From the NCBI GenBank assembly GCA_041690055.1, contig JBDNFB010000227.1:2974-66973 (forward strand): 64,000 nt of DNA. The letters run 5' to 3'. The notes beneath the pieces are model-generated. The model saw nothing but the letters and a program-made list of their open reading frames with translations, had not been told where the DNA came from and did not search any database. Source of the stretch: Myxococcota bacterium (GTDB lineage: Bacteria; Myxococcota_A; UBA9160; UBA4427). The translations under genes and the position numbers were made by a program. Shown in pieces: positions 23,588-40,760 of this stretch; position 1 is the stretch's first letter, and each line of letters begins with the position of its first letter.

Positions 23588-23610
23588 TTTTTCGCTAATC
23601 GCGGAAAAAG
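23588..23610. terminator. Possible bidirectional terminator between the convergent dnaA-like and cofH genes
   Basis: tttttcgc-taatc-gcggaaaaa hairpin with T/A flanks. Confidence 0.35.
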
Positions 23611-23695
23611 GCGAAGCGCTCTCGACTCTTCATCTGCACTAAGTCCGCCTTAGCTCGGCCTCGTGTCGCGAGTCGCGAAGTTGACTAGGCAATCG

Positions 23696-24955: not shown

Positions 24956-24956
24956 C

Positions 24957-26348
24957 TCAAGCGGCCTCCTCGTCGGACTGGTTGTTCTTCCGCTGCGCGT
25001 AGCCCTCGTCGTTGGCGTATTTCGGCAGCAGTGCCCGCATCTGCGGGTCAAAGAATTCGGGACGTTCGAGGATCCAGTCCGGATAGACGGGACCTCGTTC
25101 AAAAAGTTCGAAGCCGGCGGCCTCAGTATCCTCGCGCAACTGGCGCAAAGCAGGCCAGGGCGCTTCGGGATTGATAAAATCGACGGTGATCGGCGAAACG
25201 CCGCCCCAGTCATCCACGCCCGCCTTCAGCAGACGCGGGAGCATGTCGGCTCCAAGGTTCGGCGGCGCCTGGACATGCACTTCGCGGGGCAAGATCAGCC
25301 GCGCAAGCGCGACCCAACCCACCACCTGGTCATCTTTGAGGGGCGAAGCTGCGCGCATCTTCGTGCCCGGCTTGGGATGGAAAGGCTGGATGATCGCTTC
25401 CTGGATATGGCCGTAGCGGAGCGCAAGATCGCGGATCACCCAGAGCGTATCGACGCGCTCCGCATTGTTCTCGCCGATCCCGAGCAGCATGCCGCTGGTG
25501 AACGGAATCTTCAGCTCGCCCGCCTCTTCATGCATTTTGATACGCGTCGCAGGCTCTTTATCCGGCGCGTGAAAATGCGGCATCCCCTTCTCACGCAAGC
25601 GCCTACTCGTAGTCTCGAGCATCAGCCCCATCGAGGCATTATACGGCCGCAGCCGCGCCATCTCTTCTTTCGTGAGGATGCCCGCGTTCGTATGCGGAAG
25701 CATGCCCTTCTCGATCGTCTTCTTGCAGGCCTCCACAATCAGATCCGTCGTACTTGTTAGGCCACGTTCCGTCAGCATCTCGCGGTAGCTGCCATAAGCC
25801 ACCTCAGGCTTATCGCCGAGGCACATCAAGGCCTCCACGCATCCCGTCGCGACACCGCCGCGAACGACCTCTGCCACTTCCTCAATGCTGTAGGTATGTG
25901 CTTCCGCGGAATCGGGCTGTTTCGCAAACGTGCAATAGGTGCAGCGATTGCGGCAGAGATTCGTCAGCGGGATAAAAATATTTCGTGAGACCGTCACGCG
26001 TTCGCCGGTCTGCGCGACTTTGATTGCGCGCGCGCCGCGGCAGAGCGCGTCGAGGATTTCCGCGTCCGCGAAATGTTCGGAAAGGATCTCGGCCTGCTCG
26101 CGTGAGAGCAACGCGACGCCTTGGACTACGTCTTCTACCCAGGCCTCCACCTCAGAAACGGCGGGGGGAACACCAGGGCGAGCCAACGCGTCGCGAGCGC
26201 CGAGCGGGGCGCCGGCTTTGCGGGTCGAGTTCTCTGGTTCTGGGTTTTGCGCGTTCGGCAAAAGGGGGACTCCGAGGGATCCGGTCGAGCTGATCAGAAT
26301 AGGGCGGGCGCACTCTAGAGCATCACACAGGCGCGCTGCCTTCCGCAA
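24957..26348 (-). CDS. cofG: FO synthase subunit CofG (radical SAM); start uncertain (~26150-26350)
   Basis: SRNIFIPLTNLCRNRCTYC, PHTNAG, SMGLMLE, PDKEP, FTSG.L.GIGE, QAPPNL, DDWGGVSP.T.DFINPE.PWP. Confidence 0.92.
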   Translation of the reverse strand: MRKAARLCDALECARPILISSTGSLGVPLLPNAQNPEPENSTRKAGAPLGARDALARPGVPPAVSEVEAWVEDVVQGVALLSREQAEILSEHFADAEILDALCRGARAIKVAQTGERVTVSRNIFIPLTNLCRNRCTYCTFAKQPDSAEAHTYSIEEVAEVVRGGVATGCVEALMCLGDKPEVAYGSYREMLTERGLTSTTDLIVEACKKTIEKGMLPHTNAGILTKEEMARLRPYNASMGLMLETTSRRLREKGMPHFHAPDKEPATRIKMHEEAGELKIPFTSGMLLGIGENNAERVDTLWVIRDLALRYGHIQEAIIQPFHPKPGTKMRAASPLKDDQVVGWVALARLILPREVHVQAPPNLGADMLPRLLKAGVDDWGGVSPITVDFINPEAPWPALRQLREDTEAAGFELFERGPVYPDWILERPEFFDPQMRALLPKYANDEGYAQRKNNQSDEEAA

Positions 26349-26427
26349 TCAAGACGGATTCGGCGACCCAGAGGCCCACGACCGTATCATAGCGAAGCCC
26401 GTAACTGTCCGGAATGCTGAGAGATTG

Positions 26428-27468
26428 CTACCCCTCTAGACGGTCGGGGTTCCCCCCGGGCGATACGAGTTCCCCCTTGGCCGGAGCTCCGTCCTCTTCT
26501 CGTGGCTGCGTCCGCCAGCGACGATGGGTCCAGATCCACTGACTCGGCTCCGCCCGAATCGCCGCTTCGATGGCCTCCGTGACGCGCTGCACATTGGCGC
26601 GAATCGCTTGCGCGGGATCGGCGGCGTTCGAAACGAGCGGAATCGCAGGACCGATCTCGACGCGATGCCCCTGGCCGTTCGCGCCGCGCCGGATGAAGGC
26701 GGGCACGATCGGAACGTTCCGGGCCATCGCCAATTCGACCGGCCCCGAGCGCGTACTCGCCAGACGCCCGAAGAACGAAACGAACACTCCCTCTTCGCGC
26801 TTCGCGTCTTGGTCGAGCAGCGTAATCACTTTCCTCCCCGACTCGAGCGCGCGCACAACCGGCAAACCCGCATGCCCCATCCGAATCTGCTGCACCGAAG
26901 AAGCGTCGCCCGCGCCCTTTTCCCCGATCGTGCGCCCTCGAAGATCCAAGAGGACCTGGTCGAGAGCGGGCTCTCGGAGACCGCGGTAGACGACGGAAAC
27001 CGGAATGCCCAGGGCCGCGACTTTCGCACAAGCCAGTTCCCAGTTGCCAAGATGTGCCGTCACGACCAAAACGCCACCGCGTTCGGTCTGCGCTTCCGCC
27101 GCGCGGAGATGTTCGAGTCCTTCTACTTCGACTTGATCCAGCAAGGCGGCTGCCCTTGCGCCTCTCAAGGCGAGCAGTTCGACGAGTCCCTGCGCGAGAT
27201 GTTCGAAGACACCGCGCGTCCAAGCCTCATGATCGCGCGGGGAATGCGTCGGAAACGCGGTCGCCAGCTGCGCTCGAACCCGTCCGGTGCGCGGCGCGGA
27301 GAGCGCAGCCCACCCGCGCCCGAACCCGCGCGCGAGTGCCGCGCTCGCCGAAAGCGGAATTCGCTCCACGATCCAGGTCAGCCCATCGATCAAGCCAGAA
27401 AGAAGTCGGCTCCGCAGCGAACGCTCGGACGCTTCGCGACCCGTCGACCCTGCGCCTGGAGCGCCCAC
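26428..27468 (-). CDS. Lysophospholipid / lipid A late acyltransferase (LpxL/HtrB family)
   Basis: TAHLGNWE, LDQD, V.FFG, PSQWIWTHRRW; starts 14 nt after the carboxylase stop. Confidence 0.88.
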   Translation of the reverse strand: MGAPGAGSTGREASERSLRSRLLSGLIDGLTWIVERIPLSASAALARGFGRGWAALSAPRTGRVRAQLATAFPTHSPRDHEAWTRGVFEHLAQGLVELLALRGARAAALLDQVEVEGLEHLRAAEAQTERGGVLVVTAHLGNWELACAKVAALGIPVSVVYRGLREPALDQVLLDLRGRTIGEKGAGDASSVQQIRMGHAGLPVVRALESGRKVITLLDQDAKREEGVFVSFFGRLASTRSGPVELAMARNVPIVPAFIRRGANGQGHRVEIGPAIPLVSNAADPAQAIRANVQRVTEAIEAAIRAEPSQWIWTHRRWRTQPREEDGAPAKGELVSPGGNPDRLEG

Positions 27469-27482
27469 GCTCCAGCCCCTCC

Positions 27483-30400
27483 TCAGCGACCTGAGAGAGA
27501 GGCTTCGAGCGAATGAATCACGGCCGCACGCAAATCCGATGGATCGAGAATCTCGGACAGCGATCCCACTTCCCGCGCGCGATTGACGTTATGCACGGCA
27601 TCAAACTCGGCCGCCACCGAAGCCTGCTTTTCGAGCGTGACTTCTGTCAGCACGTCTTCGAGCTCCGCGCGATGCTCTTCCGTCGGATGTCGCCGGGCCT
27701 GCTCGGTCTTGTCCTTCACCCGAGGATCATCGAGCGCCTGCGCCCGCACCTCGCGACTGAACACCACCGCCGCCGCCGGCCCGCCGCCGATCACCGAAGC
27801 GTAGGAACCCGAAAGGGCGACCGCCTTCATTTCATCGTTTAGCTCCTGGGAGAAGACCACGTAGGCCCCGCCGTGGTAGCGAGAGACGACCGCGAAATAG
27901 ATCGGCCCGGCAAAGTTCACGACCGCGCGCGCAATCTCCGCGCCGTTTTCAAGCTGAATCTTGCGCAGCGATTCCGGCGAGCCATCAAAGCCCGACAAGT
28001 TCGCGAGCACGACAACTGGCCGATTTCCGCTCGCCGAATTAATCGCGCGAGCGACTTTCTTCGAGGACTGCGGAAAGAGCGTGCCGCCGTTCCAGGACTC
28101 GGGCCCGTCCGCCGGGTGGTAGCCGTCGCGGGGCACGTTGCGGCTCTCGATGCCGATAAGCAAAACCGGCTGACCGCCGACATGCGCATCCCAGACAATC
28201 GCTGTCTCGGCACCTACCCAGGCATTCCATCGTTCAAGGTACCCGCCGTCCTGGTCAACGAGCGCGTTCATCACTGCGCGCATAGCGAAAGGCCGTTTGC
28301 GTCCCGGATTCGTTTCATCGTCGAAGAGTTCACCGACCGTCTTGAGACCATCCGCATCGGTCTCACCAATCGTCATCTCGCCAATCGAGCGCGCCCGTGG
28401 ATCTTCAGTCGCAAATGCCCGCGGCCCTGCCTCGCCCGGCACCACATACGTGAAGCGGTAGTGCTCGTACAAGATGCGGTAGGCATCAGCGAGGTTCCGC
28501 GCGTAGTACTGCGCCTCACCATTCGGCCCCATGATCCGCTCAAAGCCGCCGATGGCGATTTCGTCTTCTGCCGAAACAGCGCCCGAAGCTTCGAGCGCCG
28601 CGCGTCCAGTCAGGACCATCGACGCGTTCTGCGTCATGATCAGGACACCACGCGTATGCATGAGCATTGTCGAAAGAGCGTCGAAGTAACTTTGCGCTCC
28701 GACGTTGACGCCTTGAACGATGATATGAACGATGCCGCCGGTCTGTGTAAACGTTACTATGCGTCGGACGACCCGAGCCGTCGCATCGAGGTTCTCGGTG
28801 CCGCTATCCATCGCGATCTTCGCACCCGAAGAAACGGGCACCCACTCGAGCGGCACGCCTTCTTTCTCGGCGAGATCGAAAGCGGCCACAAGTCGATCGC
28901 ATTCCGGCGCCGACAAAGCGCCCATGCCCATCGTCGGATCTGACAGCACGAGTACGCGCTGCATGCCTTCCGGGACTTTTTCAGTCGGCGTACGAATCAG
29001 GCCAAACACAACCGCCGAAGTGTTCTGGCCTGGCGGCCTCGACGCAACGCTCATGGCGCGCGGCGTCTTGCTTTCCGGATCCAAGTCGAACTCTTCGAAA
29101 GAGCCTTCTGTGCGCTCTCCTTCCGAGGTTTCCCCCGTCAGCATCTTCACGATCTCATACGGATAGATCAGACGACGTCGGCGTGCGGCAACAACCTTCC
29201 GCTCGTATTCCTGCGCGGGGGCAAGAGGCGCGTGATGCGGATTTCGCCAAGTCGTCTCGAGCTGCTCGCCGGTATCTGAAATCACGAGTTCGCAGGCTTC
29301 CGCCGGTTCGTCTGGATTCTCGCGATCGAGTCGATTGAGTTTGACGATCACTTTCTCGAGGCCTAGATGACGGGTCGCGGGGGCAAGCCTGCGTGCCACG
29401 TCACTCGCTACTTCCGCGTCCACAAAAACCTCAGGCGCTACGAAGATCGCGATGCGATTCCATTGCAGCCGCCTTCGCGGATCGTTGGTTTGCAAGATCG
29501 TCCGAAGGCGGCGGGCCGCGCGGTTGAAGACGCGCTCGAAGGTCCCGAGATGATGAGAGAGCTCGCGACCCGGCTCTGGCGATCGATCGCGCGCATCAGC
29601 CAACACGAAAATGCGTTCGTCGCCGGGCGCATTGCGAGCGCGACCGTGGAAGGCGTAGATGCCTTCCTCGGACTGCAGGCGATCAAGATCGAAAGCCGCA
29701 TAGCGATCGAGCGCGATGCGTCCCGCGGTTTCCGGATGCAGATCATGATGTTCGTAGGCTCGCTCGATCTGTCCTTCGCGACGCACGAGCGTCCGGTAGA
29801 CGTCTCCTTCGCCGTCAGAGGTGAGCAATCCGACCGTGATCCGCCAACCGAAATCGACATCGGCATAAGCGGTTTCGATTTCGCCAAGCGTCTCGTCCCA
29901 GTCAAGACCCCCAGCGCGCTCCTCTTCGCTCGTCGCAGGAATCAAAAACTCAAGCGCTGTAATGGGCGTTCCCGGATCGCGCTCAAGGAGCGTTGCGGCG
30001 CCGCGCATAAGCCGGTCCATCCAAACCCCGAGTTCCGAGGCCTCTCCCGTCGCGGCCAACACAACACCCTTGCCTCGGTACTCCACGCAATGAATCGGTT
30101 CGTCATCCACACGAACTGCCCGATAGGCCTCAGGCGTACTCGGCGCATATCGTCTCTGAACATGGGCAGCGAGAGCAATCGCACGCCGATTCGAATCTTC
30201 TCCGCCGATCCAACGGCCCACCCGCTCAAAGACCATACGCGGCGAAGAAGCGACCTCGAGCAGCACGTCACCGGGCGGCGCCACAGCGTCCATCTCGGCT
30301 ACGGCCAACCATTCTTCGACCGTGCTCGAGGAACGCTTCGCGCGTTCTTCGATGCCCGGCTCCTGGAAAATGACGTACGAAGCTTCAAGCGCCGCATCCG

Positions 30401-33125
30401 CAATCGTATCCGTCACCTGAGGACGCATGCGTGCGATCCGGTTGAGGGCGCCGGCCAGCCGAGCATCATCGCCCATGAATATGCCGGTCTGCGCGAGTCG
30501 GGTAATCCGTCGCAGAACACCCAAGATCAAGGAAAGCCGCAGGCTCCGTCCCGGCTGACAAGCCAGAATCCGGAGCAGCGCCCGCCGCAGTGCATCCGAA
30601 GGCGAAAGATCCGTAATGCCGTAATGCGAGAGCGCCGCGCGAACCAAATCGAGGTACTCCTCGTCGATTCCCGCCCCCTCCGCTTCCACGCGCCGGATAT
30701 ACATACCGAGCCGAGCGTGATTCGAAGGTCCAGACTGGCCGGAAATCGAAGCGCTCGGTGCGCGAACGGAGAGGAGCTCTACGTCCGCGAAGGTTTCCAC
30801 TTCGTGCCGGATTTCAGCGAGTGCCCGCGTAAAGCTCTCCGAGAGATCCTCGGGCAGCGGCGCCTCAAGGAACGAAGCAAGCGCGTCCGCCCGATCGGGG
30901 TTCGCGTCGTAGCCGAGAAGCACCCGGCGAATCTCTTCGCGGGCAGCATCGATGGCGAGACGTCGATCACCCAGATCCGCATGATCCGCCGCGAGCAGAG
31001 CCGGCTCACCCAGCGGCCGCTCCTCGTTCGGTGAAAAGAGGAGCGCAATCGGATCCACTTGCTCCGGCAACCGCAGGCGCGTTCGAACCACGCTATCCGC
31101 GGCCTCTTCGCTCGACTCCTCGATCACAAGAATCATATCGCCGGCGGCAACCTGTTGACCCTTTTGGGCGATAACTTCCTTGATCGTCCCGCCCACGGGC
31201 GCCTGGAAGCCGATCTCCATTTTCATCGCTTCGAGCAGTCCCAGCGACTGCCCCGCCGTGACCGTATCGCCCTCGGCAACGTGAATCGCGACCACAACAG
31301 CGGGCGTGCTCGATCGGACCTGTCCCGCAGTTTGCGAGCTAAATCGGAGCGGATGGCCGTCGACTTCGAGACGCAAGCCGCGCTCGTTCGCGTCGTACTG
31401 AATCCGGCGCACGCGATCGTCGATGATCAAACGCGCGGCATGGTCGCCCTCTTCTCGCATCGTGGCGCCCACGGCGACACCTTCGAGATGTACGCGGTAG
31501 CGCCAGCTACCGATCGCGTAGACCTTGAGTCGATAACTCTCCGCCCCGAACGAGAGGTCGATTTGTTGACCTTTCGACGAGGGCGGTCGATCGCCGCTGG
31601 TATCCCCTCCGAAGATGCCTGTGCGCAGAGTCGCCCGGCTTCGCTGATAGGAGAGAATCGCCGCCGCGACGAGCGCGTCTCGTGCGAGCTCCGGATGGGT
31701 ATCCACGATGCTTGCGCGTTCGGCACTCCAGAAATCAAGCCAGCGTGTATCGACGCCGCCTCTCCGAAAATCGTCGCTCGCCAGGATATCGAGCAGATAC
31801 CCCTTATTCGTCGCTCCGCCCTCCACAATGAGTTCCAGATCCCGAAGTGCAGACGCGAGACGCGCGATCACATCACTCCGCTTCTCACCGTAGGTAATGA
31901 CTTTGGCGATCAGGGAATCAAAATCGGAAGAAATCACGGTGTTCGTCGTGACGCCGGAGTCGACGCGGGTATGTGGGCCTAATGCCGGCTCGAAGAGTGC
32001 GATGCGGCCTGGCGAGGGCAGAAAGCCTTCGTCCGGATCTTCGGCACAGACACGCGCTTCCATTGCGAAGCCGCGTCGCTCTACGGGGATCTCCGCGATC
32101 GACTCACCGCGCGCGATCCGAATCTGGATCTCGACCAGGTCGACACCGGCGATCAGCTCCGTGATGCCGTGCTCAACCTGAAGTCGCGGATTGACCTCAA
32201 GGAAGAAAAAATCCTCGCCCTTGATCAAGAACTCGACCGTTCCGACGCCGTAGTAGCCCACATGGCTCACGAGCTGGACCGCGGAATCTTCAAGGCGCGA
32301 AAGCAGCTCGTCGGAAAGACCGGGCGGCGGCGCCTCTTCGAGCACTTTTTGATGCCTTCTCTGCACGGAGCAGTCGCGGCAACCAAAGGACCGGGCAAAG
32401 CCATGCTGATCGGCGGCGACCTGCACTTCAATGTGGCGACCGCCCTGGACCATGGCTTCAATAAAGAGCGAGCCGTTACCAAAAGCCGCCATCGCCTCGG
32501 ATTCGGCGGACCGGAAGGCCTCGGCGATTTCGTCGCGCTTCTCGACCATTCGGATGCCGCGACCACCGCCACCCGCTGTCGCCTTGATCACGACGGGAAA
32601 ACCAATGCGTTCGGCATGCGCGAGTGCGTCGCGCTCATCCCGCAGCGCGCCGCCACTCCAGTCCGTCACGGGCACACCCGCGCGCTGCGCGAGTTCTTTC
32701 GATGTGATCTTGTCACCAAGCTGCCGCATGGCATCAGCCGGCGGGCCAAGAAAGAGGATGCCCTCGGCGTTCAGCCGGTCCACGAAGACGGGATCTTCTG
32801 CAACGAATCCCCAACCCGGCCACACCGCATCTGCCTTCGCTTCACGGAGCGCCGCCAGGACGCCATCATGATCGAGATAGGCGGCCACGGCGCCGTTCTC
32901 CGCCGAGAGTTCGACGGCGCGGTCCGCTTGCCGCACGTAGGGTGTGTTGCGATCGGGTGCTGTGAATAGGGCCACGACCTCGAGGCCGCCCCCTTCTCTT
33001 TCGCGGAGGCTCTTCGCCGTGCGAAGGCATCGGACGCCGGCCTCTCCCCGATTCACAATCGCCAGCCGCTCGATGCGGCGTGATTCGATTTGTCCCGGTC
33101 CGTTCGTGTCGCGCTCGTCACTCAT
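27483..33125 (-). CDS. Single-chain multidomain acyl-CoA carboxylase (BC-BT-BCCP-central-CT), ~1880 aa
   Basis: BC: NRGE, WPGWGF, GGGGRG, RDCSVQRRHQK, EVNPRLQVEH. Biotin site EAMKME. ~600-aa central region. CT: SSGAKI, LANLSGFDG, GGAYVV. Confidence 0.92.
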   Translation of the reverse strand: MSDERDTNGPGQIESRRIERLAIVNRGEAGVRCLRTAKSLREREGGGLEVVALFTAPDRNTPYVRQADRAVELSAENGAVAAYLDHDGVLAALREAKADAVWPGWGFVAEDPVFVDRLNAEGILFLGPPADAMRQLGDKITSKELAQRAGVPVTDWSGGALRDERDALAHAERIGFPVVIKATAGGGGRGIRMVEKRDEIAEAFRSAESEAMAAFGNGSLFIEAMVQGGRHIEVQVAADQHGFARSFGCRDCSVQRRHQKVLEEAPPPGLSDELLSRLEDSAVQLVSHVGYYGVGTVEFLIKGEDFFFLEVNPRLQVEHGITELIAGVDLVEIQIRIARGESIAEIPVERRGFAMEARVCAEDPDEGFLPSPGRIALFEPALGPHTRVDSGVTTNTVISSDFDSLIAKVITYGEKRSDVIARLASALRDLELIVEGGATNKGYLLDILASDDFRRGGVDTRWLDFWSAERASIVDTHPELARDALVAAAILSYQRSRATLRTGIFGGDTSGDRPPSSKGQQIDLSFGAESYRLKVYAIGSWRYRVHLEGVAVGATMREEGDHAARLIIDDRVRRIQYDANERGLRLEVDGHPLRFSSQTAGQVRSSTPAVVVAIHVAEGDTVTAGQSLGLLEAMKMEIGFQAPVGGTIKEVIAQKGQQVAAGDMILVIEESSEEAADSVVRTRLRLPEQVDPIALLFSPNEERPLGEPALLAADHADLGDRRLAIDAAREEIRRVLLGYDANPDRADALASFLEAPLPEDLSESFTRALAEIRHEVETFADVELLSVRAPSASISGQSGPSNHARLGMYIRRVEAEGAGIDEEYLDLVRAALSHYGITDLSPSDALRRALLRILACQPGRSLRLSLILGVLRRITRLAQTGIFMGDDARLAGALNRIARMRPQVTDTIADAALEASYVIFQEPGIEERAKRSSSTVEEWLAVAEMDAVAPPGDVLLEVASSPRMVFERVGRWIGGEDSNRRAIALAAHVQRRYAPSTPEAYRAVRVDDEPIHCVEYRGKGVVLAATGEASELGVWMDRLMRGAATLLERDPGTPITALEFLIPATSEEERAGGLDWDETLGEIETAYADVDFGWRITVGLLTSDGEGDVYRTLVRREGQIERAYEHHDLHPETAGRIALDRYAAFDLDRLQSEEGIYAFHGRARNAPGDERIFVLADARDRSPEPGRELSHHLGTFERVFNRAARRLRTILQTNDPRRRLQWNRIAIFVAPEVFVDAEVASDVARRLAPATRHLGLEKVIVKLNRLDRENPDEPAEACELVISDTGEQLETTWRNPHHAPLAPAQEYERKVVAARRRRLIYPYEIVKMLTGETSEGERTEGSFEEFDLDPESKTPRAMSVASRPPGQNTSAVVFGLIRTPTEKVPEGMQRVLVLSDPTMGMGALSAPECDRLVAAFDLAEKEGVPLEWVPVSSGAKIAMDSGTENLDATARVVRRIVTFTQTGGIVHIIVQGVNVGAQSYFDALSTMLMHTRGVLIMTQNASMVLTGRAALEASGAVSAEDEIAIGGFERIMGPNGEAQYYARNLADAYRILYEHYRFTYVVPGEAGPRAFATEDPRARSIGEMTIGETDADGLKTVGELFDDETNPGRKRPFAMRAVMNALVDQDGGYLERWNAWVGAETAIVWDAHVGGQPVLLIGIESRNVPRDGYHPADGPESWNGGTLFPQSSKKVARAINSASGNRPVVVLANLSGFDGSPESLRKIQLENGAEIARAVVNFAGPIYFAVVSRYHGGAYVVFSQELNDEMKAVALSGSYASVIGGGPAAAVVFSREVRAQALDDPRVKDKTEQARRHPTEEHRAELEDVLTEVTLEKQASVAAEFDAVHNVNRAREVGSLSEILDPSDLRAAVIHSLEASLSGR

Positions 33126-33133
33126 AGCCAGGT

Positions 33134-33964
33134 CTACTCCGCCGCTGCTTTGGGGCTGACTGAATCCATCACGTGATCCGTCAAGATCATTTCGCTTCCC
33201 GCATTCGTTTCGCTTCTCATATCCGTTCCTGTTCTCACACCCGCTCCTCTTCTCACATCCAAAGTCGGCGTCATTGCGAAGGCAACGAAGCGACCGTGAT
33301 GCGATAAAGAAAGAGACAGAGAAGTACATCCACCGTCGAGCTCGACAGTCGGAATCTTCCCGCACCGACCAATCGAGAGTCGATCGACCTCGACTCCCAG
33401 GTTCCGCCCGATCTCGCGCACAGCAAGTATGCGCACCGCAACACTCGGATCGGTGGAGGCGGGGGCAGGGGCAGGGGCAGGGGCAGGGGCGAAGTTGAAA
33501 GAGACGGGCGACCGCTCCTCGACCGAAAAGACAAGCGCATCCCAGTCAGAATCCACAGGCAGCGCAATCACATGCACCGATTGCGCCGACTCGTAGCTTC
33601 GAATTTCGAGCTCCCGCGCGTGAGGGGCAGGCAGGACCATCCGCCCGCGGCGCTCCACCCAACTCGTTTGCGCGGAAATCGCTGAGGACGCCGAAGCATG
33701 TATCGACCCTGAGACCATTTCCGCTGGTTCGAAACGCGCGGTGAGCTGAATCGGAGAGAACACGAAATGCGGATCGAGCTGCCGGGCCAGCTTGTAGGCC
33801 GCTTCTTTCGCGCCCCAATGCGCCCATCGGCAGGCCAGTGACGCCGCATCGCGGGCAATCACGCGCCGCTCTTCGGCGGAGAAAACGCGTTCGTCAAAGC
33901 GCGGTCGAAAGGTCTCGGGACGCGCGTCGATATCTTCGAGGTCGATGACATCATTGCCGAGCAT
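33134..33964 (-). CDS. 4'-phosphopantetheinyl transferase
   Basis: GNDVIDL, WGAKEAAYK, SLSLSHHGRFVA. Confidence 0.9.
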   Translation of the reverse strand: MLGNDVIDLEDIDARPETFRPRFDERVFSAEERRVIARDAASLACRWAHWGAKEAAYKLARQLDPHFVFSPIQLTARFEPAEMVSGSIHASASSAISAQTSWVERRGRMVLPAPHARELEIRSYESAQSVHVIALPVDSDWDALVFSVEERSPVSFNFAPAPAPAPAPASTDPSVAVRILAVREIGRNLGVEVDRLSIGRCGKIPTVELDGGCTSLSLSLSHHGRFVAFAMTPTLDVRRGAGVRTGTDMRSETNAGSEMILTDHVMDSVSPKAAAE

Positions 33965-34775
33965 CGAAATAATCTTCCTCCATCCGAATCAATTGACGAA
34001 CAATTTGCTGTGCCAGATCGCGCGAGCGGCGCACACCCTTCGCATCACTCTTGGGTTCAATCGCCGTCAGCGCGACTTCCACCGTGTCGCCCTTCGCCGG
34101 AAAGTCGCCCCAGGTTTCCTGGTTGCGGCCGCGCATATAGACGCAGAGCACGCGACAGCCCGGGATTGACCCGACGATACGCCCGACCCCCCAAGCCGCT
34201 GCCCGCTCTTCGACACGACCGCTTCGACTCCGACCGGCTTCCGGAAAAAGCAGCGCCGTCTCTCCTTTCGCAAGCAGAAACTTCACGCGCTCAAGCACAT
34301 CGCCCACATCTTCCCGCGCGCCGCCGCGCGTGATCGGGATGCATTTCGCGATGAAGAGCAGAAGACGCGCGAAGACGGTTTTCCCGAAATTCGTGCTCTC
34401 CGGGGTATTCCAAGGCAGCTCATCCGGATTCTTCAGCCAGTACGTGCCCGACCCAAGCGCCCATGCAATGATGAACGAATCCACCAGCGTGAGATGATTC
34501 GCACAGACCAGCAGAGGCCCATCCGATTGCGCACGGATCTGCTGATACTCACGGCGAATCCGCCGAACGTCTGCGATGCGATAGCGGAACCAGAGGCGCA
34601 TCACAACGACGCTCACGCCAACCCAAATCGGTCCAGCGATCATACTCACCGCACGCTGTCTCGCGTGGGCGCGCACCATCTCGGGATGCGAGTCGCTGGT
34701 TTTCTCGACCAGCTTCGCGCGTGCCCGGCCCGGATCAAGTTCTCCGGGATCATCGCTGGAAACGCTTTGGGTCAC
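33951..34775 (-). CDS. PlsC-like (1-acyl-glycerol-3-phosphate) acyltransferase
   Basis: NHLTLVD (HxxxxD) and LFPEAGRSR. Confidence 0.85.
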   Translation of the reverse strand: MTQSVSSDDPGELDPGRARAKLVEKTSDSHPEMVRAHARQRAVSMIAGPIWVGVSVVVMRLWFRYRIADVRRIRREYQQIRAQSDGPLLVCANHLTLVDSFIIAWALGSGTYWLKNPDELPWNTPESTNFGKTVFARLLLFIAKCIPITRGGAREDVGDVLERVKFLLAKGETALLFPEAGRSRSGRVEERAAAWGVGRIVGSIPGCRVLCVYMRGRNQETWGDFPAKGDTVEVALTAIEPKSDAKGVRRSRDLAQQIVRQLIRMEEDYFDARQ

Positions 34776-34812
34776 ACAGTTCCTCTGCCTACCGCTCTGC
34801 TTTCAGATCCGT

Positions 34813-35058
34813 TTAGAGCTTGCCCGAAATCAGATTGACAGCATCGCCCACGGTGTTCACCAGATCGACATCTTCGTCGGCGATTTCGATATCGAAATCA
34901 TCTTCGAAGGCGATGACCACATCCACGAGACGAGCCGAGTTCACCTTGAGGTCTTCGAGAATATTCGTCTCCATGCCCACCTTGCCGAGCGCGGCTTCGT
35001 CCTTGACCCAAGGCGTAAGAATCTTGACGACGCGCTCCATGACTTCCGATTGTTCCAT
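34813..35058 (-). CDS. Acyl carrier protein (atypical NSA motif)
   Basis: Acidic, 81 aa; EDLKVNSARLVDVVIAFEDDFDIEI...TVGDA; AAGGAG RBS. Confidence 0.9.
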   Translation of the reverse strand: MEQSEVMERVVKILTPWVKDEAALGKVGMETNILEDLKVNSARLVDVVIAFEDDFDIEIADEDVDLVNTVGDAVNLISGKL

Positions 35059-35081
35059 TTTTGCAGCTCCTTCTTTGGTCT

Positions 35082-35131
35082 GACCGTTTGACCCGACCGT
35101 TGACCCGACCGTTGACCCGACCGTTGACCCG
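35082..35131. repeat. 12-bp tandem repeat x4 between the KS and ACP genes
   Basis: gaccgttgaccc x3 plus one degenerate copy. Confidence 0.85.
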
Positions 35132-35219
35132 GCAGAGGGGTCCGACAGAGTGGTTCGAAAGAGCCGCTCTGACTAGACCCTAATCCATTCGCACGAATGC
35201 GAAGCCCATCTCGTTCGCG

Positions 35220-36512
35220 CTACGCCTTGTAGCGCTTGAATACCAGACAAGCATTGACGTCACCAAACCCAAAACCGGCTTTCACCAGCACATCGAGATC
35301 CGGCATTTCTCTCATCACATGCGGAATCGAAGCCGCATGCTTTTCAATCTCGGGATGCACATCTTCGCAGTTGATCGAGGGGTGCACGAAACCGCGCATG
35401 ACCATAAGCGCCGAGGCCACGGATTCGATTCCGCCAGCCGCGCCAAGGGCATGCCCAATCATGCTCTTTGTGGCCGTGATGGGTGGAAGCTCGCCCGGTC
35501 CGCGACCCAGCGCCCGTTCCCAGGAGCCCACTTCTTTGGGATCCGCTCCGGTTGCCGTCAGATGCCCGTTGATTGCGTCGACTTGATCCGGCGTGACGCC
35601 CGCGTCGGCCAGCGCTTCCGCGATGCATCGTTGAACGCTCGTCGGATTCGGCGAAGTCATGCTGCCACCCATACGGTGACCACCACAGTTGACGCCGCTA
35701 CCCGCGACCTCCACGTGAATGCGTGCGCCGCGCGCAAGCGCACTTTCGAGACTCTCGACCAGGACCACGCCCGCACCCGATCCAGGAATAAATCCGCCCG
35801 CCGAAGCGGAAAGCGGCCGCGACGCTTTTTCGGGATCGTCATTCGAACCACGGTTCAACACGCGCATGGCGTCAAAGCCGGCCCAGATATAGTGGCTCGC
35901 CGCCTCCGCCCCACCGCAGAGCATCCGGTCGGCAAGGCCCGCTCGGATCCGTTCCATTCCCATCGAGATCGCCTCGGTGCCCGTGCTGCAAGCGCTCGAG
36001 TTCGTGGTCACCTGATTACCGAGTGCGAGTTGGCCGGAGATGCGTGCGGAAATTCCGCTTGCCATCACCTGCTCCACCGCCGTCGAACCCATGCGACGCA
36101 CTTTGCCAGCGTTCGTCATCGGCACGACGCGTTCGGCGATCGTATCCATGCCGCCGATACCCGTGCCGAGAATCGCGCCGGATCGCCAATCGACTTCTTC
36201 CGAATCCGCGGCCGGGCGTTCGAGGCCTGCGTCTTCCCAGGCTTCGATCGCGGCGAGGCTCGCGTAGCGCTGATTCAGATTCATTCCGAGGAGTTCTTCC
36301 TGAGTGAACTTCTTCTCGCAGAGTGCGTCGACGCCTTCGGGTGTGCCCGCCACGGTGCAGCCGAACTTCGCCTCGGCCATCTTTTCCTGATGCCTCAGTC
36401 CGGACTTGCCCGCGCGCAGCGCTGCTTCGAATTCGCTAACGCCGACTCCGTTCGGAGCCACAACACCCAGCCCCGTAATGACCACGCGCTTCTTTTCACT
36501 CGCTCCGCTCAT
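35220..36512 (-). CDS. Beta-ketoacyl-ACP synthase (FabF/FabB family)
   Basis: RVVITGLGVV; catalytic triad SSACSTG / INGHLTAT / KSMIGH; GFGFGDVNA. Confidence 0.93.
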   Translation of the reverse strand: MSGASEKKRVVITGLGVVAPNGVGVSEFEAALRAGKSGLRHQEKMAEAKFGCTVAGTPEGVDALCEKKFTQEELLGMNLNQRYASLAAIEAWEDAGLERPAADSEEVDWRSGAILGTGIGGMDTIAERVVPMTNAGKVRRMGSTAVEQVMASGISARISGQLALGNQVTTNSSACSTGTEAISMGMERIRAGLADRMLCGGAEAASHYIWAGFDAMRVLNRGSNDDPEKASRPLSASAGGFIPGSGAGVVLVESLESALARGARIHVEVAGSGVNCGGHRMGGSMTSPNPTSVQRCIAEALADAGVTPDQVDAINGHLTATGADPKEVGSWERALGRGPGELPPITATKSMIGHALGAAGGIESVASALMVMRGFVHPSINCEDVHPEIEKHAASIPHVMREMPDLDVLVKAGFGFGDVNACLVFKRYKA

Positions 36513-37000
36513 TGCGGTACTCCCATCCCCGAAAGTTCTCCGGAACACACAACGGTTCCGTCATCGGTCTTCATCTCGAACGAAGCGCGCAATTTTTTGC
36601 GACGCCAGAATTTGATCCGCCCCGTCGTCGTCACACGATCGCCCGGCTTCACCGTGCCTGAAAAGTCGATATTGCAATCCGTGAAGATCGTCAGCAGCTT
36701 GCCGACCTCTTCACGCGAGGTGTCGCGGGCGTAGAGAAAAATCCCGAACGCAACCACCCCCGCCTGCGCCGCAGTCTCAATCAAAATCACGCCGGGCGTA
36801 ATCGGATTCCCCGGGAAATGGCCCCGATAGAAATCCGCTTCCGGCGAGAACGTATACCGCGCAACGATATGCTCCTCGTCGAGTTCCACAATCTCGTCGA
36901 TGAACCGAAATGGTTCCTGTTGCGGAACCATTCCCAGTACTTCTTCGGGGGAGAGGATGTCGCCTCCAGGAGCGGCTGCATCCGCGGCTTTATCCGCCAT
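36509..37000 (-). CDS. 3-hydroxyacyl-ACP dehydratase, FabZ-like
   Basis: PQQEPFRFIDEI and FYRGHFPGNPITPGVILIE (His...Glu). Confidence 0.9.
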   Translation of the reverse strand: MADKAADAAAPGGDILSPEEVLGMVPQQEPFRFIDEIVELDEEHIVARYTFSPEADFYRGHFPGNPITPGVILIETAAQAGVVAFGIFLYARDTSREEVGKLLTIFTDCNIDFSGTVKPGDRVTTTGRIKFWRRKKLRASFEMKTDDGTVVCSGELSGMGVPQ

Positions 37001-37748
37001 ACATGCCTCCGTTCACGTGGAGGACACTACCGTTGATATAGCTACCGCGCGTCGCAAGGAAACCCACCACGTCGGCGATCTCGTCTGCTCTACCCGTTCG
37101 TCCGATCGGAATCTTCGCCAGGATGGCTTCCTTGATTTCCTCGGGTAGTTCTTCGGTCATCTCCGTATCGACGAAGCCCGGCGCGATCGCGTTCACCAAG
37201 ATGTCCCGGCCCGCGAGTTCTTGTGAAAGCGATTTCGTAAAAGCGTCGAGTCCCGCCTTCACCATCGTGTACGGAATCTGTCCCGCATTGCCGGTATGCC
37301 CAACGACGCTTGAAATATTGATGATGCGACCCGTTCCCTTGCGCAGCATGAAGCGGCGCAGCACGAGCTTCGTGAGATACCACGTCCCTCTCGCCACCGC
37401 GGCCACCGAATCATATTGATCAAGATTCATAGCGAGCATCGGCGCGTTCACGTTGTAGCCCGCGTTATTCACAAGCACATCCACGCGACCCTCCGCACCC
37501 TTCAGTTCCTTGACCAGCGCATCAAGGCTCTCCGAATCCGTCAAATCCGCCTTGATCGTAAACGCACCACCACCCGTCGAGGCGAGTTCCGCCGCAAGTT
37601 TTTCCGCCGTCTCTTCGCTCGATCGGTAATGAATCCCGACGCGGAAGCCGTCCGCCGCCAGCTGCCGGCAACACGCGGAACCAATTCCCGTTCCGCCACC
37701 CGTTACGAGGGCGACGGGGGTTTCTTCGTTCGCAGCGCTCTCGCTCAT
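36990..37748 (-). CDS. fabG: 3-oxoacyl-ACP reductase, FabG-like
   Basis: TGGGTGIG, NNAG, NISSVVG..GNAGQ.PYTMVK, APGFVDTEMT, VNGGM. Confidence 0.88.
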   Translation of the reverse strand: MSESAANEETPVALVTGGGTGIGSACCRQLAADGFRVGIHYRSSEETAEKLAAELASTGGGAFTIKADLTDSESLDALVKELKGAEGRVDVLVNNAGYNVNAPMLAMNLDQYDSVAAVARGTWYLTKLVLRRFMLRKGTGRIINISSVVGHTGNAGQIPYTMVKAGLDAFTKSLSQELAGRDILVNAIAPGFVDTEMTEELPEEIKEAILAKIPIGRTGRADEIADVVGFLATRGSYINGSVLHVNGGMYGG

Positions 37749-38338
37749 CGCTCCATCCTTCCGCCCCGGGAATGCTCGCTCTCGTTCGGATAATCCGGAT
37801 AGTCGATGTCTTTAAAGAGCCCCACCCGTGCGCCCTTGACCGTATAGATCTCTACATCATCGATCAAAACCTGTGCGTCGCCGATCACCATCGCCGCACC
37901 GGCCTTCTTGAGTTCCGTGTACCGCTTGATCTGAAGCTCGTATCGCATGACGCCGTCGAAGGGCCGGATCTGACCGAAGAACTCCACTTCACCGCAACCG
38001 AGCGCACGGCCGGCACCTATGCCGCCGCGCCAATTGCAGTAGAAACCAAGCAGCTGCCAAACGCCGTCGAGTCCGAGGCATCCCGGCTGAACCGGATCGC
38101 CGATAAAATGACAGTGGAAGAACCAGTCATCGACGCGGACGTCACGGGAGGCACTCACTGTTCCACGACTCTTGTCGGCGGTAATCGATTCGACGCGGTC
38201 CACCATGAGCATAGGCGGCACGGGCAAGCGCGCGCAAAACCCTTCCGGCGGATCATCGATCAAACGACCGTATGCAAACGCGAGCAAATGCTGCTGCGTA
38301 AAAGAGTCGCGGGTGGTGAATTCAGCGTGAGACAGCAT
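37745..38338 (-). CDS. fabA: 3-hydroxyacyl-ACP dehydratase/isomerase FabA
   Basis: LP.PPMLMVDR, WFFHCHFIGDPVQPGCLGLDG (His...Asp), GRALG.GEVEF.GQI.P. Confidence 0.92.
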   Translation of the reverse strand: MLSHAEFTTRDSFTQQHLLAFAYGRLIDDPPEGFCARLPVPPMLMVDRVESITADKSRGTVSASRDVRVDDWFFHCHFIGDPVQPGCLGLDGVWQLLGFYCNWRGGIGAGRALGCGEVEFFGQIRPFDGVMRYELQIKRYTELKKAGAAMVIGDAQVLIDDVEIYTVKGARVGLFKDIDYPDYPNESEHSRGGRMER

Positions 38339-38370
38339 CGTCGATCGGTTTCCCTTGCCTAAGTATCAGT

Positions 38371-39363
38371 CTAAACATCATGAAATCGCATCAAATAACT
38401 TCCCCAGGTCAGACCAGAGCCGACGCCAACAACGCAAAGATCGTCGCGCGGCGTCCATTTATCCCAGCGCTGGGAAATCACACTTCCCGAGCTCGCGCCG
38501 GCTGTGTTTCCGAAGAGTTCGACATTCGAATGATGGAGATCGTCTGGCACATCGCATCGCCGACACACGGATTCGAGCATCCGCAGGTTTGCTTGATGAC
38601 CGATGAAATGAAAATTGCGCGTTTCCTCGAGATGTTGCTCGCGGCTCGCAAGCAGAAGATCAGAAGTCTTCCGAATCGCGAAGGTCTGGACCGTGCGGCC
38701 TTCCTGGCGGAAATGCCCGATCCGCGGCACGACCACCTTCTCATGACCGGCAGGGTCGGAAATTAGATTCGAGTGCACGATCTCGGCGACACCGCGCTGC
38801 TTGGTCGAGAACACCGCGGCCAGCGCACCATCGCCCCAAAGCACCGAAGCCGTCCGATCGCTGTAGTCCACCGTCTTCGTCATGGGCTCGGCGGTCACGA
38901 CCAATACAATATCGGGCAGCTTCGCTGGATCCATCATCGAAAGCATGTAGACCGCGGCAATAAAACTTGAACATGCCGAATTTACGTCGAGACTCGCCGA
39001 TTGCACTCCGAGCAACGCGCCCACATTGCACGCCTCCGCCGGCGATGTCGTATCAGGTGCACAGCCGCCGCCCAGCATGAGTCCCACATCGGAAGCATTC
39101 ACGCCCGCTCGTTCGAGTGCCATGTTCGCCGCGTACGCGCCCATCTGTGCATTCGAAATTTCGGCGGCTTCGATCGCGGCCGCCGGATCGGCGTTCCGAG
39201 TCGTCCGGATATAGTCGAGCGGCAGAGTCGTACGACGACTCCGAATCCCAGTCCGCTCAAGAATCCACTCGTCATTGGTCCCAATGTCGAGGTCCTCGAG
39301 GAACTGATTCGTGATCTCGTTCTCGGGATGGAAATGCCCAATCCCCAGCAGATTCAAGCTCAC
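38371..39363 (-). CDS. fabH: Beta-ketoacyl-ACP synthase III (FabH family)
   Basis: WILERTGI..RR; triad SACSSF / HQAN / GNTAGAS; GDGA; GSGLTWG. Confidence 0.9.
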   Translation of the reverse strand: MSLNLLGIGHFHPENEITNQFLEDLDIGTNDEWILERTGIRSRRTTLPLDYIRTTRNADPAAAIEAAEISNAQMGAYAANMALERAGVNASDVGLMLGGGCAPDTTSPAEACNVGALLGVQSASLDVNSACSSFIAAVYMLSMMDPAKLPDIVLVVTAEPMTKTVDYSDRTASVLWGDGALAAVFSTKQRGVAEIVHSNLISDPAGHEKVVVPRIGHFRQEGRTVQTFAIRKTSDLLLASREQHLEETRNFHFIGHQANLRMLESVCRRCDVPDDLHHSNVELFGNTAGASSGSVISQRWDKWTPRDDLCVVGVGSGLTWGSYLMRFHDV

Positions 39364-39385
39364 CTGCTTACCCTCGCCGTTCCGG

Positions 39386-40348
39386 CTATTTCGTCGAACC
39401 CGAGATGTGCTCGCCACCATCGACGCGGATCAACTCACCATTGATCCAGTTCGCCTCAGGTTGAGAGAGCAGAAAGATCACACCGGCCACATCTTCGGGG
39501 GTCGTGAGACGTCCTCCCGGATTGCGCAGCCGCGCTTGGCTCTTGAGCTGACCGCTGCCCGGAATGGCGCGCAGTGCGGGTGTATTAGTCACGCCCGCCT
39601 GAATCACATTGCAGCGAATTCCGTGGGGCCCAAACTCGAGCGCGATCGATCGCGCCAGCGCTTCGAGCGAAACCTTTGCAGCGGAGACCGCGGCGTATCC
39701 CTTCCAAGCGACCTCGTTGCCTTCACTCGTCAGGCCAAAGATCCGCGCGTCTTCCGCGAAGAGGCCGCGGGCGAAGAGTTCCTGCGTCCAGCCGAGGAGG
39801 CTCGTGCCCATCGCTAGAATCGTGCGGCTGAAATCCTCTTCGTCGAGGTAGGACGTGTCCGGATATTTCGGCTGACTCACAAGCGGATGCAGTCCGTCTT
39901 CGCCGGCTTCGAAGAGCTCGTCTGCGATCTCCGTCAGCTTCGCGGCATCGACGCCGAGGCGCTGCGCCAAGTTCGGCCCGGCGGTGCGCTCTTTGACTTT
40001 CTCGGGCGCGATCAGTTTAAGATTGCCGAACGCGATGGAATGCAGGAGCACGCGAACGCGGCCTTCGGCACCGATCGCTTCCACGATTTCGTCGAGGGTC
40101 TCGGTGCGCTTGTCGGATGCGATGGCGTCGGCGTTCCAAACGTGAAAGCCCACGCCCATGCCGGCCAGCTCATCAAAATGCGGTTGGATATCTTTCATCG
40201 CGCCGCGGCGATCGCGATGCACGATCAGGACATTCAATCCGCCGCGCGCAAGACGCTTCGCCGTGGCCAGGCCGAAGCCGCTCGACCCACCCAGGATCAG
40301 CGCCCATTCGTTCTTTGAAAATCCACTGCCGAAATCGTTCGTACCCAA
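39386..40348 (-). CDS. Enoyl-ACP reductase-like SDR (FabL/FabI-type)
   Basis: WALILGGSSGFG, TSEG, Y-x6-K (YAAVSAAK), NVIQAGVT.TPAL; probable TTG start downstream of GAGGGG. Confidence 0.8.
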   Translation of the reverse strand: MGTNDFGSGFSKNEWALILGGSSGFGLATAKRLARGGLNVLIVHRDRRGAMKDIQPHFDELAGMGVGFHVWNADAIASDKRTETLDEIVEAIGAEGRVRVLLHSIAFGNLKLIAPEKVKERTAGPNLAQRLGVDAAKLTEIADELFEAGEDGLHPLVSQPKYPDTSYLDEEDFSRTILAMGTSLLGWTQELFARGLFAEDARIFGLTSEGNEVAWKGYAAVSAAKVSLEALARSIALEFGPHGIRCNVIQAGVTNTPALRAIPGSGQLKSQARLRNPGGRLTTPEDVAGVIFLLSQPEANWINGELIRVDGGEHISGSTK

Positions 40349-40744
40349 CTCGTTCCCCTCTAATATGCACGCTGCCAATGGGCGTTTCTCTGCAAGGTCA
40401 ACTGCAGACATGCAGATGTGTCGCCTGAACGTCCGCATGGACGCCCTGAGCTCAGTTGCGCGTTCCGCTTAGTCCGAGCTCTTAATCTCGGCCCTCGATG
40501 AACGCCCCTACTGCTCCACTTGAAACGCAGCCTTGGGGGTGAAATCGGCCCATGAGTTGAGTCGAATCGCTGCGACGGGCAAACCGCTCGGCTGCATGGA
40601 GGCGCAATCAAGAGGTCTTCCGAGTGCTCAAAGTAGCGGCGAATCGCCTTTGGAAATGCAAATCTCTCGCAAATTCGTAGGACGGCGCCACCTTCTGCAC
40701 AGCGAGCATGACTCATAGTCAAAACCAGTCAATGGGCTCAAGCC

Positions 40745-40760
40745 CTTCCCTTCGGGGAAG
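40745..40760 (-). terminator. Stable hairpin immediately after the dinG stop
   Basis: cttccc-ttcg-gggaag (+ strand); no clear U-tract. Confidence 0.35.

Follow-up and report, generated by a model that had tools for sequence, protein, structure and literature searches.

A 64,000-nucleotide stretch of DNA from a Myxococcota bacterium (assembly GCA_041690055.1, contig JBDNFB010000227.1; referred to here as the window) holds a gene for an exceptionally long biotin-dependent carboxylase, raising the questions of whether the product is a bacterial version of the single-chain acetyl-CoA carboxylase (ACC) of eukaryotes, which pathway it supplies, and what it says about the origin of the eukaryotic enzyme. 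Judged by its sequence, the gene most likely encodes an intact eukaryote-type single-chain ACC, and most likely supplies malonyl-CoA to its own operon. In bacteria, such enzymes are common and have been on record since 2019, so that the preliminary description of the locus over-rated its novelty.

The gene lies in a minus-strand open reading frame (ORF) that spans 27483..33365 (1960 codons, from GTG); its coding on the minus strand corrects the preliminary description. Translation from the ATG at 33125, giving 1880 aa, is the supported start because the upstream gene ends at 33134 and because this length fits that of the relatives: the full-length ones are mostly 1862-1901 aa, and the nearest, with 94% identity in the central region, also has 1880 aa. 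Pfam matches (Table 1) place a biotin carboxylase (BC) domain, a biotin carboxyl carrier domain, a central region, and one two-lobed carboxyltransferase (CT) in a single polypeptide, in the order found in eukaryotes. The 1880-aa ORF and the Pfam order agree with the earlier claim that BC, carrier, central region, and both CT lobes are combined in a chain of ~1880 aa. The central region, given there as ~600 aa, is present but longer: about 715 aa separate the carrier and transferase matches, with no Pfam family at E<=0.01 in a scan of the whole protein. Between BC and carrier, alpha chains of methylcrotonyl-CoA carboxylase (MCC) align without a break (8j4z_E, query 15-673; 3u9s_A, query 15-671), suggesting a BT-like linker.

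Single-sequence searches miss the homology of the central region, so that a profile was needed: phmmer with residues 670-1880 against PDB matched the CT part only, the whole-protein Pfam scan gave no ACC_central match at E<=0.01, and a full-length profile was uninformative on the center, its PDB matches being dominated by the BC domain. With a profile from a 20-row alignment of central regions alone, 11 of the 12 PDB matches at E<=1 were eukaryotic ACCs (Chaetomium, yeast, and human), the best of which (3.5e-19) covered profile positions 144-296 and 347-581 in two collinear stretches; the remaining match, to YopN (E 0.22), can be put down to noise. Pfam ACC_central (PF08326) was matched by 18 of the 20 family members at E<=1 (best 5.1e-24), so that the hidden Markov model (HMM) check proposed earlier came out in favor of homology for the family, with the piece from the window itself below the cut-off. 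An AlphaFold2 model of the central region, built on the same alignment (mean pLDDT 80.1, pTM 0.74), has a helical first half followed by two alpha/beta halves. All 31 Foldseek matches against PDB at E<=0.001 were yeast, Chaetomium, or human ACC, the best being 5csl_B (8.5e-19, query TM 0.50) and the next ones armadillo repeats at E>=1.4e-3; the suggested structural comparison with yeast ACC thus gave the same answer. On the evidence of profile and predicted fold, the central region and the central domain of eukaryotic ACC are genuinely homologous.

The catalytic ends were examined column by column. The BC domain retains 58 of the 62 columns that are invariant in 17 other BCs (3 from this genome and 14 from eukaryotic ACCs), including the GGGG-x-G loop, K139, K181, H231, K260, E298, E310, N312, R314, E318, and R358, positions that we take to correspond to the named catalytic residues of the E. 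coli enzyme. The four changes (L->A, A->V, A->L, and L->I) are conservative, and the BC HMM score of 857.7 falls in the top group. As judged from these residues, the ATP site is intact and the features of an active BC are present. The predicted biotin lysine is K635 (codon 31221-31223), within EAMKME at residues 632-637; E632, A633, M634, K635, and E637 are invariant among 37 aligned relatives, as are nearly all positions of the other motifs quoted in the preliminary description, namely WPGWGF (102-107), LANLSGFDG (1707-1715), and QLENGAEI (1724-1731). The view that WPGWGF is nearer to the eukaryotic form was borne out, since all 14 eukaryotic ACCs have W-x-G-W-G and the three other BCs of the genome have HPGYGF. 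The same holds for the proposed parallel in the CT segment, where all 14 eukaryotes have ANWRGFSGG and the six other CTs of the genome have xxxPGF or PGV. The window protein has the CT motifs SGA(K/R)I and ANxxGFxG in common with eukaryotes, and neither is found in the genome's other transferases.

The BC end varies among the full-length relatives: P0152, P0219, P0142, P0163, P0186, P0203, P0127, P0262, and P0134 score 46-284 bits on the family BC model, most other relatives score about 530-590 bits, and the CT scores of the low group are normal. These low-scoring relatives are possible dead-BC variants.

Placement of the protein among carboxylases was addressed with quick IQ-TREE trees (LG+C20+F+G4, SH-aLRT, without bootstraps) of domains cut by HMM, with the long outgroups taken from the source genome only and with eukaryotic ACCs collected by a shortened query among proteins longer than 2100 aa. 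The CT tree had 54 rows and 540 columns, with P0163, P0219, P0142, P0203, L054, L052, L058, P0353, P0340, L013, and also L028 left out; the BC tree had 45 rows and 460 columns, with P0134, P0262, P0127, P0186, P0152, and L080 additionally left out for poor BC scores. In the CT tree, the 14 eukaryotes form one group (SH-aLRT 99) and 34 bacterial single-chain proteins another (100), and a further split (100) divides these two groups from the six other CTs of the source genome. The CT of the window protein thus groups with eukaryotic ACC, as had been anticipated, and apart from the genome's other CTs of the acyl-CoA carboxylase beta type, including that of a chain resembling LCC (the carboxylase of long-chain acyl-CoA). 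In the BC tree, eukaryotes and bacterial single-chain proteins are likewise split from three other BCs (SH-aLRT 99), but this tree does not settle how eukaryotes, a biotin-ligase-fused group, and the main bacterial group branch from one another. The PDB ranking of the CT agrees: the 20 best sequence matches are all CTs of eukaryotic ACC (5.5e-18 to 1.1e-11), followed by PCC-beta/AccD5 at about 4e-9. The window protein itself belongs to a five-member Myxococcota clade (100) well within the bacterial group, which long branches part from the eukaryotes. As far as quick trees can tell, eukaryotic ACC is sister to the whole bacterial family and not to this branch and, within the same limits, other bacterial members appear at least as close to eukaryotes as the branch of the window protein. 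The earlier suggestion that the gene is informative on the origin of eukaryotic ACC therefore stands for the breadth that it adds and falls, by both trees, for any special closeness of its branch.

This breadth is considerable. Relatives of the central region were collected from loci of one genome per species (105 of 161 pattern matches encode a relative; 78 distinct loci were retained). By record titles, those at 70-89% identity come from metagenome-assembled genomes (MAGs) of Myxococcota or 'Deltaproteobacteria', and those at about 27-30% identity come mostly from Acidobacteriota. An Actinomycetota MAG homolog (L089) falls in the same bacterial clade of the CT tree as the window protein. The fused family spans Myxococcota, Acidobacteriota, and Actinomycetota. 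Among 1.84 billion representatives of 50% identity clusters, the central-domain profile matched 2475 at E<=0.001 and 795 at E<=1e-30; the best 150 matches were proteins of bacterial length only (up to 1995 aa), with no eukaryotes among these. A word-based search found 607 relatives among 7999 candidates scored. Some members carry additional domains. P0277, P0278, and P0280 (2361-2381 aa) also have a biotin protein ligase domain (PF03099, precomputed), the carboxylase thus being fused to its biotinylating enzyme; in the CT and BC trees, a separate clade unites P0277 and P0278 with P0282, which has no PF03099 match. P0272 (2238 aa) has extra N-terminal reductase-type domains (PF03060/PF00478), and P0275 (2780 aa) has extra N-terminal KR/adh_short and PF21089; from their domains, both resemble ACCs with fatty-acid or polyketide tailoring domains attached.

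In domain order and motifs, the window protein resembles eukaryotic cytosolic ACC (yeast Acc1, 5csl/5csk; Chaetomium, 5i6h; human ACC1, 6g2d), and its central domain has the same predicted fold with detectable sequence homology. In contrast to the eukaryotic enzymes, however, it is about 350-400 residues shorter (1880 vs 2129-2674 aa for the named eukaryotic matches), its CT keeps only 46 of the 126 columns that are invariant in 14 eukaryotic ACCs, and the branches between the groups are long.

The closest characterized system is SACE_4237 of Saccharopolyspora erythraea, which Livieri et al. (2019, PMC6491548) introduced as the first multidomain ACC from a prokaryote. According to that paper, SACE_4237 is a chain of about 200 kDa that forms a homodimer; its central region is eukaryote-like, and its CT clusters with eukaryotes. 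The purified enzyme acts as a carboxylase on both acetyl- and propionyl-CoA, and fatty-acid synthesis cannot do without it. The earlier remark that fused bacterial carboxylases are poorly characterized is therefore out of date, at least for this enzyme, which had been purified, assayed, and found essential by 2019. Judged by the features described there, the window protein shows every sequence-level feature of the SACE_4237 family: a single chain of ~200 kDa with BC, carrier, eukaryote-like center, and a CT grouping with eukaryotes. Like SACE_4237, it also probably provides fatty-acid synthesis with malonyl-CoA where the genome lacks AccA/AccD. It differs in belonging to Myxococcota, as judged by the record titles of the closest loci, whereas the same text lists orthologs only in actinobacterial families and proposes an actinobacterial origin of the eukaryotic enzyme, and in that its gene is fixed inside an operon of the type II fatty-acid synthesis (FAS II) type. 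No publication naming a fused ACC type in Myxococcota or Acidobacteriota was found, in a search whose coverage excluded most subscription journals. The available part of Lombard and Moreira 2011 (PMC3199775) treats eukaryotic ACC as too divergent to place and names no bacterial single-chain relative. A preprint crediting many eukaryotic lipid genes to Myxococcota (bioRxiv 10.64898/2026.05.08.723234) has the word 'carboxylase' nowhere in its main text, as far as that text was available, and has no bearing on this question; neither does PMC11714749.

Two other architectures invite comparison. LCC, like the window protein, is a bacterial polypeptide that unites BC, carrier, and CT; according to its paper, however, LCC has about 1100 aa, forms a hexamer, and lacks a central domain, in contrast to the 1880 aa and central domain found here. 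The source genome has its own LCC-like gene (contig C57:21573-24941, minus strand, locus L123), which encodes a single chain of 1122 aa with BC followed by CT and no central domain and whose CT, unlike that of the window protein, is placed among the outgroup CTs of the tree. The multi-subunit AccA/AccB/AccC/AccD enzyme is expected to carry out the same overall reaction and shares the BC catalytic residues, but it consists of four separate proteins without a central domain and has a split CT of a different subfamily.

The gene neighborhood provided an additional layer of context. The carboxylase gene lies between a gene for a phosphopantetheinyl transferase (PPTase) and one for an acyltransferase, as noted earlier, within a same-strand array of FAS II-type genes in which neighbors either overlap slightly or are separated by 161 bases at most (Table 1).

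Table 1. Features of the carboxylase gene and of its operon in the window. Scores are from Pfam and NCBIfam models.
Feature	Coordinates	Strand	Evidence
Single-chain carboxylase gene, 1880 aa plus stop	27483..33125	minus	ORF translation, Pfam domains, length of relatives
BC domain, residues 18-464	31734..33074	minus	PF00289 (Biotin_carb_N), residues 18-133, E 2e-29; PF02786 (CPSase_L_D2), residues 138-345, E 9.3e-63; PF02785 (Biotin_carb_C), residues 356-464, E 8.7e-30
Putative BT-like linker from BC to carrier, residues 465-602	31320..31733	minus	Continuous alignment with MCC alpha chains
Biotin carboxyl carrier domain, residues 603-668	31122..31319	minus	PF00364 (Biotin_lipoyl), E 4.7e-15
Central domain, residues about 680-1349, predicted non-catalytic scaffold	29079..31088	minus	Profile, fold, HMM envelope
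CT domain, both lobes, residues 1386-1877	27495..28970	minus	PF01039 (Carboxyl_trans), E 2.8e-35; PDB ranking; CT tree
Short-chain dehydrogenase/reductase (SDR), candidate enoyl-ACP reductase (FabL-like), putative function	39386..40438	minus	PF13561; best NCBIfam FabL, 113.7 bits, far below cut-off
FabH-like ketoacyl-ACP synthase III	38371..39420	minus	PF08545, PF08541; NF006829, 201.9 bits, below cut-off
FabA dehydratase/isomerase	37745..38338	minus	NF003509, 200.8 bits, above cut-off 124
FabG 3-oxoacyl-ACP reductase	36990..37748	minus	PF13561; NF009466, 223.9 bits, above cut-off 222
FabZ-like dehydratase	36509..37000	minus	PF07977; best FabZ match of the genome, 70.9 bits, below cut-off
Beta-ketoacyl-ACP synthase (KAS) I/II	35220..36548	minus	PF00109, PF02801; TIGR03150, 304.9 bits, below cut-off
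Acyl carrier protein (ACP), 81 aa, second ACP of the genome	34813..35058	minus	NCBIfam ACP models, best E 1.8e-14, below cut-offs
PlsC-type acyltransferase	33951..34775	minus	PF01553, E 3e-11; synteny
PPTase, 8 bases upstream of carboxylase	33134..33964	minus	PF01648, E 1.7e-8
LpxL/HtrB-type acyltransferase, 14 bases downstream of carboxylase	26428..27468	minus	PF03279, E 2.6e-39

The arrangement is conserved in the nearest relatives. Searched by tblastn with the window proteins, the 27 closest loci (L013-L039) include 25 in which at least half of the carboxylase is covered; upstream of it, 24 of these 25 have the PPTase, the PlsC-type gene, and the synthase, the exception being a locus that starts inside the gene, and the LpxL-type gene lies downstream in 23. 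The full ten-gene order SDR-FabH-FabA-FabG-FabZ-KAS-PlsC-PPT-ACC-LpxL recurs in 20 related loci, which strengthens the earlier claim of a tie to fatty-acid synthesis. The operon order was found in none of the 50 farther loci searched in the same way (L041-L090, mostly Acidobacteriota). A promoter and terminator scan of 23000-41500 was uninformative, with 2 promoter-like signals vs 3.6 expected and 24 terminator-like signals vs 16.0, none of them clearly intergenic.

The distribution of the enzyme bears on its role. In the source genome, neither AccA nor AccD gave a match above cut-off, the weak partial matches lying on other transferase genes only. Searches of 151 genomes of the phylum, including the source genome, found the central domain (E<=1e-10), and thus the fused enzyme, in 58 and accA (E<=1e-30) in 49, 48 of the latter above the cut-off. 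Both were present in just four genomes (G044, G110, G120, and G130), with 54 having the fused enzyme only, 45 having accA only, and 48 having neither. The 27 other genomes of the window's class (families f1-f8) include none with accA and 25 with the fused enzyme, which is present in 9 of the 9 genomes of the window's own family. In family f28, accA occurs in seven of nine genomes, and the remaining two are exactly the two with the fused enzyme. The fused enzyme and accA are thus almost mutually exclusive in the phylum, a pattern that fits functional replacement of the housekeeping enzyme and supports it, rather than proving it.

Taken together with domain content and family placement, these observations make it probable that the gene encodes a functional biotin-dependent carboxylase of acetyl-CoA, and probably also of propionyl-CoA, which belongs to the bacterial family of homodimeric multidomain ACCs and supplies malonyl-CoA for fatty-acid synthesis. 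As in other members of the family, the N-terminal BC would use ATP and bicarbonate to carboxylate the biotin on K635 of the carrier, which would then swing to the C-terminal CT, where CO2 would be passed to acetyl-CoA to form malonyl-CoA. The ~670-aa central domain would act as a non-catalytic scaffold that places both catalytic ends, as in yeast ACC, and the enzyme would presumably be a dimer. From its context, the carboxylase is probably co-transcribed with the FAS II genes, the ACP, the PPTase, and the two acyltransferases, would supply malonyl-CoA to fatty-acid synthesis in a lineage without an AccA/AccD-type enzyme, and may be essential there.

Several observations weigh against this assignment. 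The central region of the window protein scores only 14.4 bits on PF08326 (E 0.012), below the gathering threshold of 23.2, so that its homology rests on profile and fold. The source assembly (G000; 6.34 Mb in 266 contigs, 91.8% complete) is 8% incomplete. As 48 genomes lack accA and the fused enzyme alike, the phylum must have a third route to malonyl-CoA, and the genomes of the phylum are not independent, so that the exclusion pattern overstates its own weight. The source genome has six other CT-domain genes, to which NCBIfam gave no substrate, all being far below cut-offs; one of them adjoins a separate BC on contig C76 and could also make malonyl-CoA. Finally, the operon is not the whole FAS II set and might serve a special lipid, because FabD and the canonical acpP that it adjoins lie on contig C45, and a second FabH-FabF pair lies on contig C74.

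The alternative that best survives builds on these last points: the carboxylase would be dedicated to one pathway, feeding only the ACP, synthases, and two acyltransferases of its operon for a special lipid (for example, lipid A or a membrane-lipid acyl chain), with housekeeping malonyl-CoA coming from the BC and CT on C76. Such dedication would suit an operon that has its own PPTase, its own LpxL-type and PlsC-type acyltransferases, and its own ACP, which scores below the C45 acpP on TIGR00517 (46.4 vs 100.7 bits), and it would suit the location of FabD-acpP and of the second FabH-FabF pair elsewhere. General fatty-acid synthesis nevertheless appears to need the operon, since FabA occurs only there (tblastn of the genome gave no second copy), and the operon also holds the genome's best FabZ match and its sole FabG match to exceed a curated cut-off. 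The near-exclusion of the fused enzyme and accA fits a housekeeping replacement instead, as does the presence of the fused enzyme throughout the window's family and in 21 of the 23 other genomes searched from its class, making a purely dedicated role unlikely.

A second alternative, which we regard as improbable, is that the enzyme acts mainly on propionyl-CoA or a different short acyl-CoA, giving methylmalonyl- or ethylmalonyl-CoA for branched lipids or polyketides. No sequence feature fixes the substrate, and the available text on SACE_4237 reports similar efficiency with propionyl-CoA and acetyl-CoA (PMC6491548). The neighbors, however, are ordinary FAS II genes, including FabA, with no methylmalonyl-specific acyltransferase or polyketide synthase in the operon, and the genome's other CT genes are better suited to propionyl-CoA. 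Still less probable is a grouping with urea carboxylases or LCC, which the preliminary description had set, together with a lack of ACC_central homology, against its own reading. The NCBIfam models for urea and pyruvate carboxylase do score well, but over the shared BC part only (residues 16-471) and far below their cut-offs (463 vs 1304 bits for TIGR02712, urea carboxylase; 520 vs 965 bits for NF009554, pyruvate carboxylase). Moreover, the Pfam scan found no C-terminal domain of either enzyme, the CT of the window protein stands apart from the LCC-like CT of C57 in the tree, and the profile and Foldseek searches found the central domain to be particular to ACC-type enzymes. Recent gene transfer from a eukaryote, which the eukaryote-like domain order and motifs might bring to mind, can be dismissed as exceedingly improbable, as the 34 bacterial proteins form one clade set apart from the 14 eukaryotes by long branches, the family counts 2475 representatives in at least three phyla, and the G+C content of the gene region (0.61-0.62) equals that of its surroundings (about 0.61 for the window).

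Further observations concern the surroundings of the gene. ACPs usually carry phosphopantetheine at a D-S site; the operon ACP (34813-35058) has LKVNSARL, hence N-S, at the expected position. A short plus-strand frame (35061-35183) that repeats RPLT four times, in the 161-base gap between synthase and ACP, is probably a small DNA repeat and not a gene. Aryl-polyene clusters include an adenylating enzyme, an ammonia lyase, and an exporter among their parts; a cluster of that type was set aside here, as none of these three was found among the 17 proteins scanned around the gene, and a candidate enoyl reductase is present, at odds with a polyene as product. After the lipid operon, on the minus strand at 23696-26348, lie genes for CofG (409.5 bits, cut-off 213) and CofH (477.2 bits, cut-off 374), the two radical-SAM halves of FO synthase, in a position kept in most related loci; a role of these radical-SAM genes as lipid-modifying enzymes was rejected, given that both exceed the NCBIfam cut-offs. 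The dnaA gene (21623-23587, plus strand) is convergent to the operon, and this neighborhood is kept in most related Myxococcota loci; the operon for fatty-acid synthesis and ACC may thus lie near the replication origin. Cumulative GC skew drops steadily along the window, without a turning point. Elsewhere in the genome, the FabH-FabF pair on C74 (locus L126, 5865-9262, plus strand) is followed by a PF10520 lipid desaturase gene (E 9.7e-48), from a family that we take to include plasmalogen desaturases.

This study provides a solid example of an intact eukaryote-style ACC in a phylum other than that in which the type was described, and the near-exclusion of fused enzyme and accA provides comparative evidence for a housekeeping job of the fused enzyme. 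Being compact and yet equipped with the central domain, the bacterial ACC would also be a convenient model for how this domain works. A broader history can be put forward tentatively, with somewhat less than an even chance of being correct: namely, that single-chain ACC, instead of having arisen in Actinobacteria, is an old and widespread bacterial enzyme that repeatedly displaced AccABCD and became welded into a FAS II operon in one large lineage of uncultured Myxococcota, with the eukaryotic enzymes as sister to the whole family. The breadth of the family, which covers at least three phyla, and the position of the eukaryotes outside the bacterial clade in the quick trees weaken the case for Actinobacteria as the specific origin. 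If the broader history is true, the actinobacterial-donor proposal of 2019 would need revising, and Myxococcota or Acidobacteriota would be equally good candidate donors of the eukaryotic enzyme.

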